From assembly GCF_016903815.1 (NCBI RefSeq), contig NZ_CP069973.1: a stretch of 64,000 nt of DNA; one strand, written 5' to 3'. Position 1 is the stretch's first letter. Each line of letters begins with the position of its first letter. A program made the translations under genes and the position numbers. Of this stretch, positions 17,291-54,597 are shown in pieces. The stretch is from Escherichia coli (GTDB lineage: Bacteria > Pseudomonadota > Gammaproteobacteria > Enterobacterales > Enterobacteriaceae). The notes below the pieces were generated by a model. That model was not told where the DNA came from and searched no databases. It saw only the letters and a program-made list of their open reading frames with translations.

Positions 17291-17962
17291 AAATGCGCCT
17301 ATAAGGCTCTCTTACCAGCCGCGCCCTAACAGGCGCACACGATCTGACATTTGCATCCAACTTCGTTACTTACGGCCCGTAAACGGGCTGCCCGGATAGG
17401 GAATCGATAACTGCTCTCCCATTTTATCCTCTTCAAGCTGGTGCTTTATGTAATCCTGTATCTTCGCCGTGTTCTTACCCACCGTATCGACGTAGTACCC
17501 TCTGCACCAGAACTCCCTGTTCCTGTATTTGAATTTCAAATCACCAAACTGCTCGTAAAGCATCAGACTGCTTTTCCCTTTCAGATATCCCATAAAGCCG
17601 GATACGCTCATTTTGGGCGGGATCTCCACAAGCATATGGATATGATCTGCACAGCATTCAGCTTCCAGAATCCGTACACTTTTCCACTCACACAGCTTTC
17701 TCAAAATACTGCCTATTGCTCTACGCTTCTCTCTGTAGAACACCTGTCTTCGGTATTTTGGCGCAAAAACTATGTGATATTTACAGTTCCATCGGGTGTG
17801 CGCTAAGCTCTTTTCGTTCCCCATTGGGACCCCCTTTTGATTTCTTGTTTGACACTTGCAGTTGCCAGACCGCAAGGTGTTTTAACAAATCAAAAGGGGT
17901 TTTAATAACTGGCTTAAAGCTGAAAGCTTTCCGGAACCCCCAGCCTAGCTGGGGGTTTTCTG
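17291..17962 (-). mobile_element. IS200-type insertion sequence (IS200/IS605 family, tnpA only); boundaries approximate
   Basis: Y1/HUH TnpA ORF flanked by about 75 and 135 bp non-coding arms; perfect 10-bp stem hairpin aacccccagc/gctgggggtt at 17935-17957, like the IS200 left-end structure. Confidence 0.7.
17366..17824 (-). CDS. tnpA: IS200 transposase TnpA (Y1 HUH single-strand transposase)
   Basis: 152 aa MGNEKSLAHTRWNCKYHIVFAPKYRR...; HUH motif (HIHML) and catalytic Tyr region; ORF-track 169 aa form has upstream extension. Confidence 0.88.
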   Translation of the reverse strand: MGNEKSLAHTRWNCKYHIVFAPKYRRQVFYREKRRAIGSILRKLCEWKSVRILEAECCADHIHMLVEIPPKMSVSGFMGYLKGKSSLMLYEQFGDLKFKYRNREFWCRGYYVDTVGKNTAKIQDYIKHQLEEDKMGEQLSIPYPGSPFTGRK

Positions 17963-29695: not shown

Positions 29696-30226
29696 TCAGG
29701 AACGTTTACGCGGCATCATGCGTAGAAGTGTGTTGTCCTTCCAGAAATAGTGGTGTGCCAGTGCAGCCGCAGCGTGCAACCCGATGACAAAATATCCCAG
29801 ATTCGCCAGCATTTCATGCCACGACTTTAAGCTATCAACCCGTTCGAAATTGGCCTCTGATGCATAAGGCATCGTCAAACCAAACGCAAACCACGGGTTG
29901 CCTCGGTTATACATCATCACCAAACCAATCACTGGCAGCGCAATAAACAGGAGATAAATCACCAAATGTCCCAAATGCGCCAGTCCCGTCATCATCGGTT
30001 TTGGCTTAGGTATAATCGGCGGGGTTGGGTATTTCAGCCTTAACAAAAGACGAACGACCATCAGCACGAGAATTGATATGCCACAGGAAACATGAATCAT
30101 GTTGATGAGTGGCCGATCGCTACGTGGGAAGAAACCCCGAAACTCCATTGCGCAATACGCTGCAATAACCAGCAAAAAGACCAGCCAGTGAATGCTGATT
30201 TGTAACCTTGAGTATTTATTTCCCAT
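29696..30226 (-). CDS. cybB: Cytochrome b561
   Basis: Start trimmed to MGNKYSRLQISIHWLVF (176 aa); 4-TM di-haem b561 family. Confidence 0.9.
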   Translation of the reverse strand: MGNKYSRLQISIHWLVFLLVIAAYCAMEFRGFFPRSDRPLINMIHVSCGISILVLMVVRLLLRLKYPTPPIIPKPKPMMTGLAHLGHLVIYLLFIALPVIGLVMMYNRGNPWFAFGLTMPYASEANFERVDSLKSWHEMLANLGYFVIGLHAAAALAHHYFWKDNTLLRMMPRKRS

Positions 30227-30414
30227 AACATTTCCTGCTTTAACATAATTTGCCGTTAACATAACGAGCTTTTCTTAAAATTTCATTAAATATTGTTCAC
30301 CCGTTTTCAGTACGTTACGTTTCACGGCAAGAATGTAGATTGCCCATCCCGCCATCGTGGTCTAAGCCTGGAAAGGATCAATTTTCATCCGAACGTTCCT
30401 GACAGGAGAAGACC

Positions 30415-31416
30415 ATGAGTAAAGTTGGTATTAATGGTTTTGGTCGTATCGGTCGACTGGTGTTGCGTCGATTACTTGAAGTCAAAAGCAACATAGACAT
30501 TGTTGCTATTAATGATCTCACTTCCCCAAAAATTCTCGCCTACCTGTTGAAACATGATTCAAACTACGGACCGTTCCCCTGGAGCGTTGATTTTACGGAA
30601 GATTCACTTATCGTTGATGGAAAAAGTATCGCGGTTTACGCCGAAAAAGAGGCTAAAAATATTCCGTGGAAAGCGAAAGGCGCAGAAATCATTGTCGAAT
30701 GTACTGGCTTTTATACCTCCGCCGAGAAATCGCAGGCGCATCTTGATGCTGGTGCGAAGAAGGTGTTGATTTCCGCCCCTGCCGGTGAAATGAAAACCAT
30801 CGTTTATAACGTCAATGACGACACACTGGATGGCAACGACACCATTGTTTCCGTGGCGTCATGCACCACTAATTGTCTTGCACCGATGGCCAAAGCCTTG
30901 CACGACAGTTTCGGAATAGAAGTCGGCACGATGACGACCATTCATGCCTATACCGGCACTCAGTCACTGGTGGATGGCCCGCGTGGTAAAGATCTACGCG
31001 CTTCACGTGCAGCGGCAGAAAATATCATTCCCCACACTACGGGGGCGGCAAAAGCCATTGGTCTGGTGATCCCAGAACTGAGCGGCAAACTGAAAGGTCA
31101 TGCACAACGCGTACCCGTGAAAACCGGTTCGGTGACTGAACTGGTGTCTATTCTTGGAAAAAAAGTGACTGCCGAAGAGGTGAACAACGCGCTTAAAAAC
31201 GCGACAAACAATAACGAGTCATTTGGTTATACCGATGAAGAAATAGTCTCTTCCGATATCATTGGCAGCCATTTCGGTTCGGTGTTTGATGCCACGCAAA
31301 CCGAAATTACCGCCGTGGGCGATTTACAACTGGTGAAAACGGTCGCCTGGTACGATAACGAATATGGCTTCGTCACGCAGCTTATTCGCACCCTCGAAAA
31401 ATTCGCTAAACTCTGA
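30415..31416 (+). CDS. gapC: Glyceraldehyde-3-phosphate dehydrogenase C, intact 333 aa
   Basis: NAD-binding NGFGRIGR; catalytic [10 protein letters not shown]; uninterrupted ORF. Confidence 0.9.
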
Positions 31417-31423
31417 CGCGCAC

Positions 31424-31447
31424 AGGCGGAGGAAAAAACCTCCGCCT
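31424..31447. terminator. Hairpin between convergent gapC and aldA (aggcggagg-aaaaaa-cctccgcct)
   Basis: Perfect 9-bp stem; flanking T-run weak. Confidence 0.45.
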
Positions 31448-31457
31448 CTTTCACTCA

Positions 31458-32897
31458 TTAAGACTGTAAATAAACCACCTGGGTCTGCAGATATTCATGC
31501 AGGCCATGTTTACCATCTGCGCCGCCAATACCGGATTTACGCCATCCGGCGTGGAAGCCTTGCATAGCTTCGAAGTTTTCACGGTTGATGTAAGTTTCAC
31601 CAAACTTCAGCCCTTTAATGGCTTTCATCGCGACGTTCAGATTTTGGGTATAGATTGATGAGGTCAGGCCGTAATCACTGTCATTCGCCATTGCGATAGC
31701 ATCTTCCAGCGTGTCAAATGCGACCACCGGCAGAACCGGGCCAAAGGTTTCCTCATGCATAATCGACATTTCCTGGCGAACATCCAGCAGCAATGTCGGC
31801 GGATAATAATATCCTTTCCCCTCTACCGCTTTGCCACCCAACGCCACTCTCGCCCCTTCTTCTACTGCGCGCGCCACTTTTTGCTCGACCCTTTCCAGCG
31901 CCGCGGCGTTAATCAACGGCCCCATCGCAATGTCGTTGCGTTCTGCGGGGTTACCAAATTGAACCGCCTGCAACGCTTCACCCAGCCGATTGACGAACTG
32001 ATCATAAATGCCTTTCTGTACATAAACACGTTCTGCACAGTTACACACTTGCCCACTATTAATGACGCGTGAATCAACGATGGCTTTGACTGCCAGTTCA
32101 AGATCGGCATCGTCCATTACGATAGCTGGTGCTTTACCCCCCAATTCCAGGCACACTTTGGTGATGTTTTTCGCCGCAGTCGCCATGATCTTTTCACCTG
32201 CAGAGACGCTGCCTGTCATACTGACCATTGCGACCTTTGGGTTACCCGCCAGTTCTTGCCCAACGGTTTCACCACGCCCCAGAACAAGGTTAAACACGCC
32301 GCGCGGAAGGCCTATTTCATCGACGATTTTGGCGAATGCAATCGCATTGTTTGGCGTAAATTCACTGGGTTTAATGACAATGGTATTACCAGTCAAAAGA
32401 GCGGGAGCCATTTTGCGGGCAATGAGGAAGAACGGGAAGTTCCACGGCAGAATGCCGGTAGTCACACCAAGCGCACGTTTAAACAGAAGAATATTTTCTC
32501 CTGGACGATCGCTTTGAATAATCTCGCCCTCGTAACGCCGTGCCCACTCCGCCATGTAATCGATATAGTCCGCAGTAAAAGCCACTTCGACTTCAGCCAG
32601 CTGCTGGATCTTGCCCCCTTCTTCAACAATCAGCGCACTGATTTCACTGGCGCGTTCGCGGATCCCGACGGAGATTTTGCGCAACCAACTGGCGCGTTCA
32701 ATAGCAGGCAACGCTTCCCATTCTGGTTGTGCACGTTCTGCTGCATCGATTGCCTTACGGGCATCCTCGGCCTGACCATCGGGAATGCGGGAAATGACAG
32801 CCTCTGTAGCAGGGTTTACCACATCAATCCATGCGTCTCCACGCCAGGTAACAAACTGTCCATCAATATACATAGGATGTTGAACGGGTACTGACAT
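31458..32897 (-). CDS. aldA: Lactaldehyde dehydrogenase (aldehyde dehydrogenase A)
   Basis: 479 aa ALDH; catalytic Cys motif GQVCNCAERVYV. Confidence 0.93.
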   Translation of the reverse strand: MSVPVQHPMYIDGQFVTWRGDAWIDVVNPATEAVISRIPDGQAEDARKAIDAAERAQPEWEALPAIERASWLRKISVGIRERASEISALIVEEGGKIQQLAEVEVAFTADYIDYMAEWARRYEGEIIQSDRPGENILLFKRALGVTTGILPWNFPFFLIARKMAPALLTGNTIVIKPSEFTPNNAIAFAKIVDEIGLPRGVFNLVLGRGETVGQELAGNPKVAMVSMTGSVSAGEKIMATAAKNITKVCLELGGKAPAIVMDDADLELAVKAIVDSRVINSGQVCNCAERVYVQKGIYDQFVNRLGEALQAVQFGNPAERNDIAMGPLINAAALERVEQKVARAVEEGARVALGGKAVEGKGYYYPPTLLLDVRQEMSIMHEETFGPVLPVVAFDTLEDAIAMANDSDYGLTSSIYTQNLNVAMKAIKGLKFGETYINRENFEAMQGFHAGWRKSGIGGADGKHGLHEYLQTQVVYLQS

Positions 32898-48516: not shown

Positions 48517-51500
48517 TTAGAACGTTTTCTTGAAGTTCAGCATCACGCCTTTATCGCTGATGCCGTCCTCTTTCCAGTGGTAAGCATCCAGATTCAGCGA
48601 ACTTTCTTTGCTGCTGTACTTCACGCCGACGCTTGCCAGGCTGTTGATGCCGCCGCCCTTCTGACCGTCATCGACATTAAAGTGCTGACTGCCTGCGCCT
48701 GCCAGGCTTGCCGTACGCTGGCTCTTCGCGTAGCTCAGGTTCGGCCCGCCTTCCAGCGTAGCGCTAGCGCTCCAGCCGTCTTTACCTGCGTAATCCAGTT
48801 TCAACCCGACGATGCTGTCCACCGCCGTTTCGCTGCCACTGTTCATATTCAGGTTAAAGTCTCCGGCATTGCGCTCTTGATAGCCACCTTCCAGTGTGTG
48901 ACGCAGTTTAACACCCGCATATGGCGTAACCTTCAGTCCTTCGCTCGGTTCGAAAGTCTTCGCCCCTTCGCTGCGGAACTCCAGGTACTGCTGCTTCACG
49001 TCGGTATCAGCCGTTTTGTTTGTGTTGCTAAATGCAATCGAACGGCTGCTGTCAAGGTTGTGAACGTCATAACGCAATGCGTTATTCCAGTTCATGCCGT
49101 TGTCGAAGGACATCTGATGTTTCAGGCCAAAGAACTGGCTATAACCGCCTGTAACGCCATTATCACCCGCTTTCTGCGCACCGTCGCCATCGAGGCGCGC
49201 GATACCGTACTCCAGACTCATCGTCTGGCTTTCGCTCAGGTCGATGGTTTTACGCAATGCCAGCATGTCGTACTCGGTATTGTTCCCCAGCTCCGCGCGC
49301 GGATCGCCTTTCGCAACAACGTTGAACGCCAGACCGTTACCCACTTTCGGTGCGGCATCCGCCAGCATGCTAAAGCGGTTGCTTAGCACGCGCGCTTCGC
49401 GGAATACCGTGGTCGCCTGGCTACCGCTGACCTGTTTCAGGGCACTGTTCAGTTCGGCAGTCGTGCCAACGTTCAGGCTGGTATACAGCTCGTTGTTGGT
49501 GTAACCCGCATCCAGTGCTTTCGCGACGTCATTCACCGAAGCATCGGTCGCCACATCGGTATAAGCATTTTTGCTCATAGTGACGTCAACGTTACCGTTG
49601 GCATCGGTGCTGCCTTTGGCGTTCCATACCACGGTCGTTGAGGTGATAGCATCCGCGTCGGTCAGGTTGCTGCCCTCCACCACGTTATCAAAACTAACGG
49701 TGGTGTCTGCCGTACCGGCGGTAAACCCGGTGTTGATCCCTACGCCGTTCATGCTGGCATTGTTGACCTTGAGCTTACCGGCGCTGCCATCGGCACTCGT
49801 ACCCACCACGTAACCGTTGAGATTGTTCATGCCGCCATCAGTTGCATCACTTCCCGGCGTTACGCTAACCGTATTGGGACTCGGCACATCCGGCAATGTA
49901 TAGTCGCCATAATGCACTTCCGTGTTATTACCGTTGTTACCGTTCACGCCTTCAACATTAATGCTGTCACCCTGCTTGATCAGGCCAGAACCCGTAACCC
50001 CATCGGCGATCACCACCGTGCCGTTGTTAACCACGTGACCTTCTGTACCCAGCACGCTGAATGCAAACGAGTCATTGGCGAAGATATTGATGGTGCCGTT
50101 GTTCTCGATCACCGCATCCGCCGTGGCGTTGGCATCGAGTTGCATACCGATCATGCCCGTATCGGTAGTGCCCTCTGTGCCGAGGTTGATGGTGCCGTTG
50201 TTAACCAGTTGCGCGTTCTTATCACCTTCCATAGCCACAGCACCGGTACCGCTGATATTCATAGTGCCGTCATTCTGCGCGATGAAGTTACTGTGGGTTA
50301 ATTTCACAGCGCTGGCGCTGTCGTGGTCAAAGTTGATGACCCCGTTATCCTGGTTCCAGAAGAAAGCATTCTGATCCCCAGCATTACTGGCGCTAACCAC
50401 CAGCGACTTAGCAGAGACATCAATCGTTCCATCGTTGATAAAGCGACCATTCCCACCCCACATATTGACAGCACCGTTGTGGGAGGAATTACTGATGTCC
50501 ATGTGACCAGTGTTATAAAGCGTACCGGACTGATTAATATGTACAGCATTCTTGTTGTTATCGAGGATAAACTCACCGCTGTTATTGAAGACGGCGTTGT
50601 TATTAACTTCCAGCATACCTGCGTTATTGCCGCCACTGCTACTACCGAGGCGCCAGGTTCCTTCGTTATTGACCCAGGCATCACCGGTTAATGCAGAACC
50701 ATTGTCCACTTTGCCATCTTGTAAGTTATTAAAGATGCCACTGGTCTGAATAATACGTTTACTCACTGTACCACTGTTATTAAAGACGCCGGATTTTTGC
50801 ACAACATTGCTAATAGTACCGGAGTTGTTCACCAGATTAGTGCTAGCCCCAGCATACATTGTCACATTACCGTTGATGGTACCCTCATTATTGAGGGTAC
50901 CTCCCTGAGCATCAATATTGCCCATCGAACCCGCATTATCTATTACAGCATCTGGTGCCAATTTCACCAGGGTGTTAATAATGCCCGTGGAGGTATTTTC
51001 GAGCGTACCGCTTTGAACGTTGATATTGCTACCAGATACCGTTCCTGCATTAATCGTGCTTCCTGGCGTTGCATCAGTTATCAGGACTGGGTTAATGAAG
51101 TTTGTCGACTCTCCTTCAGCCACCAGAATATCACCCCCGGTGTACTGTACTGACACATAACTATCAGTCGGGTTATATTGTTCCGGGCTCTGACAAATGC
51201 CAAAAGAACAGATTGTGCCATAGTTAACGATCGTCCCCGTTCCATCGCCGTAAAATGCCTGGCCGATGTCAGTATCGATATTAATAACGCCCGTTACGTC
51301 ATTAATTGCTGTACCACTACGGATAGCTCCCATCGCGAACAACTGACCTTCATGTTGCTGCGTCAGTCCCTCATCTGAGAGCAGATTTATTTCGCCCTGG
51401 TTGATGACCGTGCCACCCTCCATCGCCAGCATGCCAAAGCCCTGGTTCTTAACATTAATAATCCCAGTATTGACTATATCGGCATCGCCATGACCCGCAT

Positions 51501-54500
51501 CGGTCGAACCCGCTAACGCGCCGCCAGCCATCAGGAAGTAAGCGTTAAAATCCCAATAGGCTTCATCAGTAATATCACCATTTTCATCTACTGAAGGAAT
51601 AAAACCATCAACATTGATCACACCTGCGTTAGTCGCAGTACCACGAGAAGCGGCAACACCATAGACCCCAGGACCATGAATATTAATTGTTGCGCCGGAC
51701 TCATTCGTCACATCACCGTAATTGCTGGCTAACAGCGCAAAGTTGGTGCCGTGATACCATACAACAGGGAACTCATACGAACCGGAGGAACCCGTTGGTA
51801 CTGTTGTTGATACCAGATTAATAATACCACCAGCCCCATTGACTGCACGAGAGCCCTCATCTATAGCGCGCATAACGCCAGCTCTTGCGTACGCTTCAGT
51901 GCCAGGTTTCACGTTAATGGTGCCCGTATTTTTTATCTCTGCACCAGCACGCGCCATCATCAAGTCCTGCGCATCGGTAGTATTGATAATGCCGTGGTTT
52001 TCTATTTCAGAGCCGATACCCGTTGCGGTAATTAGGGCATCATCCAGATACCAATTGGTATCTCTCGCCCTGACGTCAAAATCAGTGACTGAATTTTCAT
52101 CAAAAATGGCATGTCCGCCATCCGCTACGCTCACTAATGTGAAGGCTCCTCTGACTTGCCGCGAGTTCATTTGTGAATGACCACTGATATTCATCACGTT
52201 GTTTCCGGTAACAGAAACTCCCTTGATTGAATGACCACCGCTATCACCAGTGATATTTATACCGCCCTCTAAATTGATTGTGTTATTTTCACCTGTAACA
52301 TCCACTCCAACCAGCACAGCTTGGTCATTCAAATAGCCAGAACCAACATTGATATTAATGTTACCACTCAAATCGACCGTATTGTTATCACCGCCAACGG
52401 ATAACCCAGTTAAACTATCCCCAGATATTGTCGGAGAGTCTCCCATAAGGGATACAAGATTGATATTACCATCCAATGAGATATGACTATCGTCCCCGGA
52501 CATATCAACGCCGGTTCCTCCTACAAAAACCCCATTACTGTCACGTTGCTGAGTTACATTAATATCCCCGCTCAAACTGACGTCTTCACGGTCGCCTGAA
52601 ATCGCTGCTCCCTGGCCATCAAGTGAAACATTGATTTCCCCAGTAGACTTAAATACTGCATCATCACCTTCAATAATAATGCCTACAGAGTTAGCATCTT
52701 CTACCGTGATTTTACCAGTATTACCGAGTGTAACCCGGTCACCACTGATATCAATACCACGTCCGGCATCACTAACAAAAAGGTCACCTTTCTGACTTAC
52801 TTTTCCGCCATTCCCGGTAACAAGTGTCCCAACGGAATCACCATCAACGACCATCGAACCCGTAATTTCGAGATTGTTATTATCGCCAGATACAATAACC
52901 CCCGCTGACTGTTCACCGATAACATTCAGCGCATATGTTGACATCGTCAGGGTATTATTGTCACCGGTGATTTCTAGTCCGGTCGAAAAACCACCGGTTT
53001 CAACAAGCCCGGCAAGGGCGATACTGGAATTATCACCAACAATTTTAATTGCAGTTGCCGCATTTTGCGCACTCACATCGCCCACGTTAATTAACGTTGA
53101 GCCATCACCCTCGATGAGTACGCCGATTGCGTTTTCACTGGCTGAGCCATCACTGACGCTGATGTCCCCCATATTGATGAATGCGCTATCGTTACCGTCC
53201 AACAATATACCAATGGATTTTTCATCAACTACGGTAATATTACCTTTATTGCTGATAATGGTACTATTACCAGTGACATCAATACCCTTCGCACCACCGC
53301 TGACAAAGAGGTCACCCTCTTGTTTCACCAGTGCATCATTACCATTAATTTTCGAGCCAGTCGAATTTTCACCATCAACGTTCATTGTACCTTTATTATC
53401 GACTTTGGCGTCATCGCCATTAATCAGACTACCGGTACCGCCATTGGTGAATGTCGAATCACCTGCGACATTCAATGTCGTACGATCGCCATTGACAATA
53501 ACGGCCGTCCCACCATCAACTTCCGTCTCACCATTATTAGTAATGGTGATATCATCACCGGTAAGAATACCTACCACCGAACCTTCACCAATCGCGGTAG
53601 TTTTGCCGTCGTTGTTCAGGGTGATGTCGTTACCGTCAACGTTTATCACAACGCCGCCATTCAGGGCGATGTTGCCGCCATGGTCGGTAATAGTGGCATC
53701 GTTAATATGGAAATGTTCGCCAGTTGTACCGTCTGCGGTGGTGAGTGACTCTATGATTATTTCGATTTTTCCCGCTTCGTCATAGCGCCAGGTGGAGGTT
53801 CCGCCAGGATTGACGCCATTGAACGAAGCCGTGTTAGCAGCCTCGTCGACTAACCAATCCTTCACGATTGTGGTAGTGCCGCCAGGTCCGGTAAGCGTAT
53901 AGCTGCCATCGTCATTTTTGGCGTAGGTAAAGGTGGTATCACGTAATTTTAGGGTCTTCGCGTCCTGATCCCAGGTGACATCGTTTTTATAGACCACAGG
54001 ATCGTGTTTGACTGGCGTGTCATCGCCACCGTCGTCCGGGGTATCATCGCCGCCATCATCTGGCGTGTCACCGCCGTCGTCTGGCGGGACTGGTGTATCG
54101 CCGCCATCATCCGGCGGGACGGGTGTATCGCCGCCATCATCCGGCGGGACAGGTGTGTCGCCGCCATCATCTGGCGGGACGGGTGTATCACCGCCATCAT
54201 CCGGCGGGACGGGTGTATCGCCGCCATCGTCCGGCGGGACTGGCGTGTCACCGCCATCATCCGGCGGGACGGGTGTATCACCGCCATCATCCGGCACCGG
54301 AGACGGATCGTCATGATGATTATTATTATCGTGGAGTGCATATACTGCGACGCCTGTGACTGCCGCTGCCAACCCCACTGCAGCCCAGGGTAATAACTCA
54401 TTATCTTCAACTGATTTACACTCTGCCGGCAGCTTTTCTAGCTGTTCTTTACTTAGTGATTTAATATTAGCCGGGCAGCTAATCTTGCTGGATTTACGAG

Positions 54501-54597
54501 ATTCATCCGATGTTTCCGCTATCGACGTATCTGCCGCCCATGTCTGACTGCTTAACGCCATTGCAACACAGACACTGAGCAATTTTTTCCTTTGCAT
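48517..54597 (-). CDS. ydbA: Large AIDA-I-type autotransporter YdbA, uninterrupted 2026 aa
   Basis: Signal peptide MQRKKLLSVCVAMALSSQTWA; long Gly/Asn/Thr-rich beta-helix-like passenger; C-terminal barrel ending ...VMLNFKKTF. Confidence 0.85.
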   Translation of the reverse strand: MQRKKLLSVCVAMALSSQTWAADTSIAETSDESRKSSKISCPANIKSLSKEQLEKLPAECKSVEDNELLPWAAVGLAAAVTGVAVYALHDNNNHHDDPSPVPDDGGDTPVPPDDGGDTPVPPDDGGDTPVPPDDGGDTPVPPDDGGDTPVPPDDGGDTPVPPDDGGDTPVPPDDGGDTPDDGGDDTPDDGGDDTPVKHDPVVYKNDVTWDQDAKTLKLRDTTFTYAKNDDGSYTLTGPGGTTTIVKDWLVDEAANTASFNGVNPGGTSTWRYDEAGKIEIIIESLTTADGTTGEHFHINDATITDHGGNIALNGGVVINVDGNDITLNNDGKTTAIGEGSVVGILTGDDITITNNGETEVDGGTAVIVNGDRTTLNVAGDSTFTNGGTGSLINGDDAKVDNKGTMNVDGENSTGSKINGNDALVKQEGDLFVSGGAKGIDVTGNSTIISNKGNITVVDEKSIGILLDGNDSAFINMGDISVSDGSASENAIGVLIEGDGSTLINVGDVSAQNAATAIKIVGDNSSIALAGLVETGGFSTGLEITGDNNTLTMSTYALNVIGEQSAGVIVSGDNNNLEITGSMVVDGDSVGTLVTGNGGKVSQKGDLFVSDAGRGIDISGDRVTLGNTGKITVEDANSVGIIIEGDDAVFKSTGEINVSLDGQGAAISGDREDVSLSGDINVTQQRDSNGVFVGGTGVDMSGDDSHISLDGNINLVSLMGDSPTISGDSLTGLSVGGDNNTVDLSGNININVGSGYLNDQAVLVGVDVTGENNTINLEGGINITGDSGGHSIKGVSVTGNNVMNISGHSQMNSRQVRGAFTLVSVADGGHAIFDENSVTDFDVRARDTNWYLDDALITATGIGSEIENHGIINTTDAQDLMMARAGAEIKNTGTINVKPGTEAYARAGVMRAIDEGSRAVNGAGGIINLVSTTVPTGSSGSYEFPVVWYHGTNFALLASNYGDVTNESGATINIHGPGVYGVAASRGTATNAGVINVDGFIPSVDENGDITDEAYWDFNAYFLMAGGALAGSTDAGHGDADIVNTGIINVKNQGFGMLAMEGGTVINQGEINLLSDEGLTQQHEGQLFAMGAIRSGTAINDVTGVINIDTDIGQAFYGDGTGTIVNYGTICSFGICQSPEQYNPTDSYVSVQYTGGDILVAEGESTNFINPVLITDATPGSTINAGTVSGSNINVQSGTLENTSTGIINTLVKLAPDAVIDNAGSMGNIDAQGGTLNNEGTINGNVTMYAGASTNLVNNSGTISNVVQKSGVFNNSGTVSKRIIQTSGIFNNLQDGKVDNGSALTGDAWVNNEGTWRLGSSSGGNNAGMLEVNNNAVFNNSGEFILDNNKNAVHINQSGTLYNTGHMDISNSSHNGAVNMWGGNGRFINDGTIDVSAKSLVVSASNAGDQNAFFWNQDNGVINFDHDSASAVKLTHSNFIAQNDGTMNISGTGAVAMEGDKNAQLVNNGTINLGTEGTTDTGMIGMQLDANATADAVIENNGTINIFANDSFAFSVLGTEGHVVNNGTVVIADGVTGSGLIKQGDSINVEGVNGNNGNNTEVHYGDYTLPDVPSPNTVSVTPGSDATDGGMNNLNGYVVGTSADGSAGKLKVNNASMNGVGINTGFTAGTADTTVSFDNVVEGSNLTDADAITSTTVVWNAKGSTDANGNVDVTMSKNAYTDVATDASVNDVAKALDAGYTNNELYTSLNVGTTAELNSALKQVSGSQATTVFREARVLSNRFSMLADAAPKVGNGLAFNVVAKGDPRAELGNNTEYDMLALRKTIDLSESQTMSLEYGIARLDGDGAQKAGDNGVTGGYSQFFGLKHQMSFDNGMNWNNALRYDVHNLDSSRSIAFSNTNKTADTDVKQQYLEFRSEGAKTFEPSEGLKVTPYAGVKLRHTLEGGYQERNAGDFNLNMNSGSETAVDSIVGLKLDYAGKDGWSASATLEGGPNLSYAKSQRTASLAGAGSQHFNVDDGQKGGGINSLASVGVKYSSKESSLNLDAYHWKEDGISDKGVMLNFKKTF
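54031..54298 (-). repeat. About eight tandem copies of a 30-bp unit encoding PVPPDDGGDT near the ydbA N-terminus
   Basis: Direct repeats of ggtgtatcgccgccatcatccggcgggacg with minor variants visible in sequence. Confidence 0.75.

Follow-up and report, generated by a model that had tools for sequence, protein, structure and literature searches.

The gapC locus and its flanking signals

Within the window, by which we mean the whole 64,000-nucleotide stretch of Escherichia coli DNA analysed here, gapC lies between cybB, which is transcribed divergently upstream, and aldA, which converges on it from downstream. The order trg-hokB-cybB-gapC-aldA-ydcF is identical in the window, in K-12 and in strain 7/2, which was isolated in Sweden from human faeces and whose chromosome differs from the whole window at only 2 of 64,000 positions. 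The features of the locus are as follows.

29696..30226, - strand: cybB (cytochrome b561), divergent upstream neighbour; Pfam Ni_hydr_CYTB match and annotation
30227..30414, strand not assigned: cybB-gapC spacer, 188 bp between the divergent genes; presumed promoter region
30404..30408, + strand: Shine-Dalgarno sequence AGGAG, 6 nt 5' of the ATG; read from the sequence
30415..31416, + strand: gapC coding sequence, 333 codons plus TGA; type I NAD-dependent glyceraldehyde-3-phosphate dehydrogenase (GAPDH); from the open reading frame list, Pfam and NCBIfam matches, and annotation in strain 7/2
30862..30864, + strand: codon TGC of catalytic Cys150, in the SCTTNC motif
30943..30945, + strand: codon CAT of catalytic His177, in the HAYT motif
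31424..31447, strand not assigned: hairpin with a 9-bp G+C-rich stem and a GGCGGAGG-A6-CCTCCGCC core; likely terminator within the 41 bp that separate the convergent genes gapC and aldA
31458..32897, - strand: aldA (aldehyde dehydrogenase), convergent downstream neighbour; Pfam Aldedh match and annotation

The gapC frame opens with the ATG at 30415 and runs on the + strand to a TGA at 31414-31416 without a single internal stop, encoding a protein of 333 amino acids that is annotated as 'gap' (WP_000048645.1) in the near-identical strain 7/2. In several metagenome-derived gene calls, near-identical GapC proteins are given as 383 rather than 333 amino acids; such an N-terminal extension is impossible in the window, where the frame is already terminated upstream of the ATG by an in-frame TGA (30400-30402).

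Scanning 30150-31600 for consensus promoters returned a sole sigma-70-like match, at 30220-30249, which is no more than is expected by chance. The same scan did not flag the terminator hairpin, after which the + strand reads UCUUUCACUCAUU, a weak U tract. Folded as RNA, the hairpin between gapC and aldA has a predicted energy of -18.5 kcal/mol (z = -4.3), and none of 200 shuffled sequences was equally stable. The length of its loop (31433-31438) varies between genomes, being A6 in the window and A5 in CREC-544, and this leaves the coding sequence unaffected. On the other side of the gene, a mechanically called cybB frame starting from an upstream ATG (29696-30262, - strand) would encode 188 amino acids instead of the 176 given by the annotated start (29696-30226), and this longer version would reach 36 bp further into the spacer that cybB has in common with gapC.

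Two further features lie at some distance from gapC. An accessory islet of roughly 1.5 kb (34010-35420, - strand) separates ydcF from hrpA; its contents are a gene fragment and three small hypothetical genes (125, 149 and 112 amino acids), for which we found no Pfam matches. A query spanning the islet (33900-35565) was covered to at least 80% in only 586 of the 5426 complete E. coli genomes; O157:H7 is among these, at 92% identity. Most other genomes, K-12-derived strains among them, matched only about 8% of it, at its ends. An IS200C-family transposase gene lies at 17366-17824 (- strand), between ydcO and ydcL.

Family membership and predicted activity of GapC

The original prediction held that gapC is an uninterrupted frame of 333 codons retaining the NAD-binding and catalytic cysteine motifs, and both parts of this description proved correct. 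The protein matches Pfam Gp_dh_N (PF00044, E 9e-36) and Gp_dh_C (PF02800, E 4e-58), each over approximately its full length, and scores 446.2 bits against the NCBIfam equivalog model for type I GAPDH (TIGR01534; curated cut-off 367.2), with residues 3-325 of 333 covered. The NAD-binding motif is found at residues 5-14, Asp34 is also in place, the 208-215 loop is retained, and Cys150 and His177 occupy their expected motifs. Judged by sequence, these family matches are far stronger than chance would give for a frame of such length, and the gene belongs both to the type I GAPDH family and to the group of E. coli GapC orthologues.

Related members of the family were separated by the same models. 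GapA, the housekeeping GAPDH, shares its fold, Pfam domains and chemistry with GapC and yet is a distinct paralogue; against the GapA-type equivalog (NF011954), GapC reaches 302.4 bits, well below the cut-off of 662. GapA is the 'eukaryote-like' form of the enzyme and GapC the typical bacterial form. Among solved structures, the best matches apart from the E. coli entries have scores of 407-482 bits, and several of these presumably come from Gram-positive cocci (Staphylococcus aureus 3K73, Streptococcus agalactiae 4QX6).

A known protein that bears on activity is EcGAPDH1 (PDB 7C5F-7C5R), which is identical to the window GapC at 330 of 333 residues and has all catalytic residues in common with it. 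The window protein carries Ile29, Asn262 and Asn265 where EcGAPDH1 has Val, Gln and Thr (I29V, N262Q, N265T); these are three conservative substitutions and correspond exactly to the BL21 allele. EcGAPDH1, 99% identical overall, has been purified, crystallised and found active on glyceraldehyde-3-phosphate (G3P), with a KM of 0.73 mM G3P (PMC8615399). Both Cys150 and His177 are essential in that enzyme, the C150S and H177A mutants being inactive (PMC8615399). By analogy, in the window GapC Cys150 would form the thioacyl intermediate, His177 would act as the base, and the product would be 1,3-bisphosphoglycerate. UniProt P58072, the intact GapC of O157:H7, is the product of the same gene, likewise located between cybB and aldA, and equals the window copy in length.

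The presence of a housekeeping GapA in E. coli makes a specialised role for a second family member conceivable, and we therefore considered whether the protein has the GAPDH fold with another substrate or role, either as an erythrose-4-phosphate dehydrogenase like Epd (GapB), itself a GAPDH-family paralogue in E. coli, or as an ArsJ-associated, arsenate-linked GAPDH. The NCBIfam scores for these alternatives are substantial, at 279.9 (NF010058) and 277.4 bits (TIGR01532) for Epd and 307.3 bits for the ArsJ-associated family (NF033735), but all fall well short of the respective cut-offs of 539, 530.55 and 450, whereas the cut-off of the general type I model is passed. In addition, the gene is flanked by cybB and aldA and not by arsJ, and the 99% identical enzyme uses glyceraldehyde-3-phosphate. 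On the basis of model cut-offs, gene context and published kinetics we rejected both functions, and consider it very improbable that GapC acts on a substrate of this other kind.

The gene has a history of study and use. Hidalgo et al. (1996) presented gapC as a second gapA-like gene. A clinical qPCR assay relies on it as a marker for E. coli (PMC10614358), and a review recounts that gapA was swapped for gapC in an engineered E. coli that was later evolved to grow on methanol as a synthetic methylotroph (PMC11611044).

Disruption of gapC in K-12 and across E. coli

In K-12 MG1655, gapC is annotated as a pseudogene ('frameshifted; internal stop'). The K-12 copy (gapC_1/gapC_2, b1417/b1416) is the orthologous locus with the same neighbours, and its DNA is 96.1% identical to that of the window. 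Alignment of the two located two lesions, neither of which is present in the window gene.

30529..30531, + strand: codon 39; AAA (Lys) in the window, TAA in K-12
31152..31158, + strand: A7 homopolymer; A7 in the window, A6 in K-12 (around codons 246-248), the loss of 1 bp shifting the frame

The original prediction gave the K-12 gene as a frameshifted pseudogene; the alignment confirms the frameshift and adds a nonsense codon upstream of it that the prediction had left out. The dead K-12 gene has been used as a neutral integration site (PMC11340173).

Other genes in the window also seem to differ in integrity from their K-12 counterparts. The ynbB gene (phosphatidate cytidylyltransferase family; 43407-44303, - strand) has in-frame stops at codons 74 and 141, and the annotation of strain 7/2 lists it as a pseudogene ('internal stop'). 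As ynbB is presumably intact in K-12, it looks like the reverse of the gapC case, broken in the window and whole in K-12. Between pdxI and ydbL lies an unbroken autotransporter gene of 6081 bp (48517-54597, - strand; 2026 amino acids), the K-12 counterpart of which (ydbA) is split by insertion sequences. Both positions at which the window and strain 7/2 differ (49468 and 52975) fall inside this autotransporter gene.

To determine how the K-12 lesions are distributed, we counted exact short-sequence matches over 5426 complete E. coli genomes, 5417 of which have the gapC locus. Lesions were found at the following frequencies.

K-12 nonsense codon, exact 61-mer with TAA: 1152 of 5426 genomes (21%)
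K-12 frameshift, exact 65-mer with A6: 1046 of 5426 genomes (19%)
-G frameshift at CDS 417/418, EC476 type: 83 of 5426 genomes
-A frameshift at CDS about 205-208, 19SZHZ713Rt type: 5 of 5426 genomes
+C at CDS 20/21, TW10690: 1 of 5426 genomes, possibly a sequencing error
IS1-associated deletion of the 3' part of gapC and the 3' end of aldA, strain SCPM-O-B-7615: 1 genome, seen among the sampled genomes

Taken together, the K-12 nonsense codon, the -G and -A frameshifts and the IS1-associated deletion mean that gapC is disrupted in at least about 23% of complete genomes. An even sample of 60 rows gave a similar picture, with 15 or 16 (about a quarter) reading as a length-changing lesion or deletion, some of which were checked individually. 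The length of the matching span is an unreliable proxy for a frameshift, as shown by CREC-544, whose match is 1 bp shorter owing to the A5 terminator loop while its coding sequence is intact. Because disrupted copies make up only about a quarter of the sampled genomes, intact gapC is the majority state in E. coli, and K-12 belongs to a broken minority. The contrast implied at the outset, between an intact gene here and a pseudogene in K-12, is thus correct as to the two copies and reversed in direction, since the intact gene is the common form.

The lesions found in K-12 also occur in many isolates from the wild, the sources of which are dog, duck, chicken, pig, cattle and human. Six of the ten exact matches to the K-12 nonsense allele that were listed, an evenly spaced sample, are natural isolates from human, cattle, pig, chicken and duck. 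K-12 therefore inherited its lesions from a natural clade, and they did not arise in the laboratory. The lesions predate domestication, which contradicts an older account of them as mutations built up in laboratory strains.

Isolates carrying the EC476-type frameshift came from wild birds, dogs and humans. Besides those of K-12, there are at least three further independent inactivations of gapC, amid strong purifying selection. The +C of TW10690 is a singleton and perhaps a sequencing error, and was therefore left out of the secure independent losses. We also asked whether frameshifts recur at the A7 run as a hotspot, and rejected this idea because the four other length-changing lesions sit at other sites. 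As independent lesions have cost at least 23% of complete genomes their gapC, the gene is dispensable in many lineages.

Intact copies of 1002 bp are annotated in O157, BL21, CREC-544 and strain 7/2. Over a queried segment covering the gene (30265-31457), only 106 of 5417 genomes reach 99% identity to the window or more, among them strain 7/2 (100%), an independent complete genome, and KY 1497 (99.9%). We found nothing in favour of the idea that the intact frame is an assembly or sequencing artefact of a single record, and in view of these independent copies its probability is negligible. In BL21, an IS1A element is inserted in the cybB-gapC spacer (BL21 segment 1558-2255, matching window 30227-30414) and the coding sequence is intact; given this insertion, the BL21 gene may be severed from its native promoter or driven by the insertion sequence.

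Selection, expression and biological role

To assess constraint on gapC, we compared the window, BL21, O157 and frame-repaired K-12 alleles. Pairwise dN/dS is 0.02-0.05, with dS of up to 0.20, and the alleles differ mainly at synonymous sites; selection therefore maintains gapC where it is intact. GapC orthologues with 87-96% identity are present in E. albertii, Citrobacter, Klebsiella, Enterobacter, Trabulsiella and others. The window gene has diverged in DNA sequence by 3.7-4.6% from the BL21, K-12 and O157 alleles. Compared with K-12, divergence is 3.9% in gapC and 5.3% in the upstream spacer, as against 1.4-2.1% in cybB, aldA, trg and ydcF, an approximately twofold difference. This excess is not a sign of pseudogene decay because it is also seen in comparison with the intact BL21 allele; it could be explained by recombination in the past, or by weak codon bias if expression of the gene is low. 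As far as sequence data reach, the intact motifs, the near identity to an active enzyme and these dN/dS values support the suggestion that the strain may possess a second GAPDH that is functional.

Evidence on expression and regulation comes from other strains. In K-12, a ChIP-seq peak of sigma-S RNA polymerase is listed between gapC_1 and cybB (PMC4447067), and in glucose-limited chemostats an rpoS mutant shows a 5.6-fold reduction in the gapC_1 transcript (PMC4512719). In enteropathogenic E. coli (EPEC), a gapC transcript has been detected and drops in a csrA mutant (PMC6333774). According to papers that cite it, the work of Espinosa-Urgel and Kolter (1998) found gapC intact in environmental isolates and induced by fresh water, and one such paper (PMC1796617) refers to this work for an adaptive role of gapC in aquatic survival. 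The K-12 data point to a sigma-S-dependent gapC promoter. The spacer differs from that of K-12 at 10 of 188 positions, and the K-12 regulation may therefore not carry over exactly to the window strain.

An intact gene could still be effectively silent in this strain, a cryptic copy that contributes no GAPDH and is en route to decay as in K-12 and other lineages. Several observations are consistent with this: the recurrent independent losses across the species (the K-12-type lesions in about 21% of genomes, the two rarer frameshifts and the IS1-associated deletion); the absence of a strong sigma-70 promoter from the consensus scan; a GC3 of 0.48, among the lowest of six window genes compared; and the excess of allele divergence over the flanking genes, these last two fitting low expression. 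However, the low dN/dS over a dS of 0.15-0.20 indicates long-term purifying selection, which needs expression, the gene is conserved across the Enterobacteriaceae, and transcripts have been found both in EPEC and, despite its lesions, for the K-12 pseudogene. We therefore think it unlikely that gapC is silent here. We consider it highly probable that the frame is an intact chromosomal gapC, a paralogue of gapA, encoding a catalytically competent, phosphorylating NAD-dependent type I GAPDH, and that it is most likely transcribed by sigma-S RNA polymerase from the cybB-gapC spacer, as suggested by the K-12 data. With transcription of this kind, gapC would be on mainly in starved or stationary-phase cells or away from the host, rather than in fast-growing cells.

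That E. coli can carry an intact gapC is already known and ordinary, having been in the literature since the 1990s. What our analysis adds is the exact map of the lesions, their frequencies in the population, the finding that the K-12 lesions predate domestication, and the occurrence of several independent losses under strong constraint. The relevance of these results beyond correct annotation is small. Nevertheless, because the strain has two GAPDH genes, metabolic models and gapA knock-out designs based on K-12 would not be directly transferable to it. One tentative reading, to which we give well below even weight, is that gapC is conditionally useful: selection would retain it in the majority of E. 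coli, plausibly because it helps them live away from the host, and certain natural clades would have dropped it repeatedly. If loss of gapC tracks ecology, for instance in strictly host-bound lineages, then the state of the gene could serve to mark niche, and losing it could be adaptive and not merely neutral.
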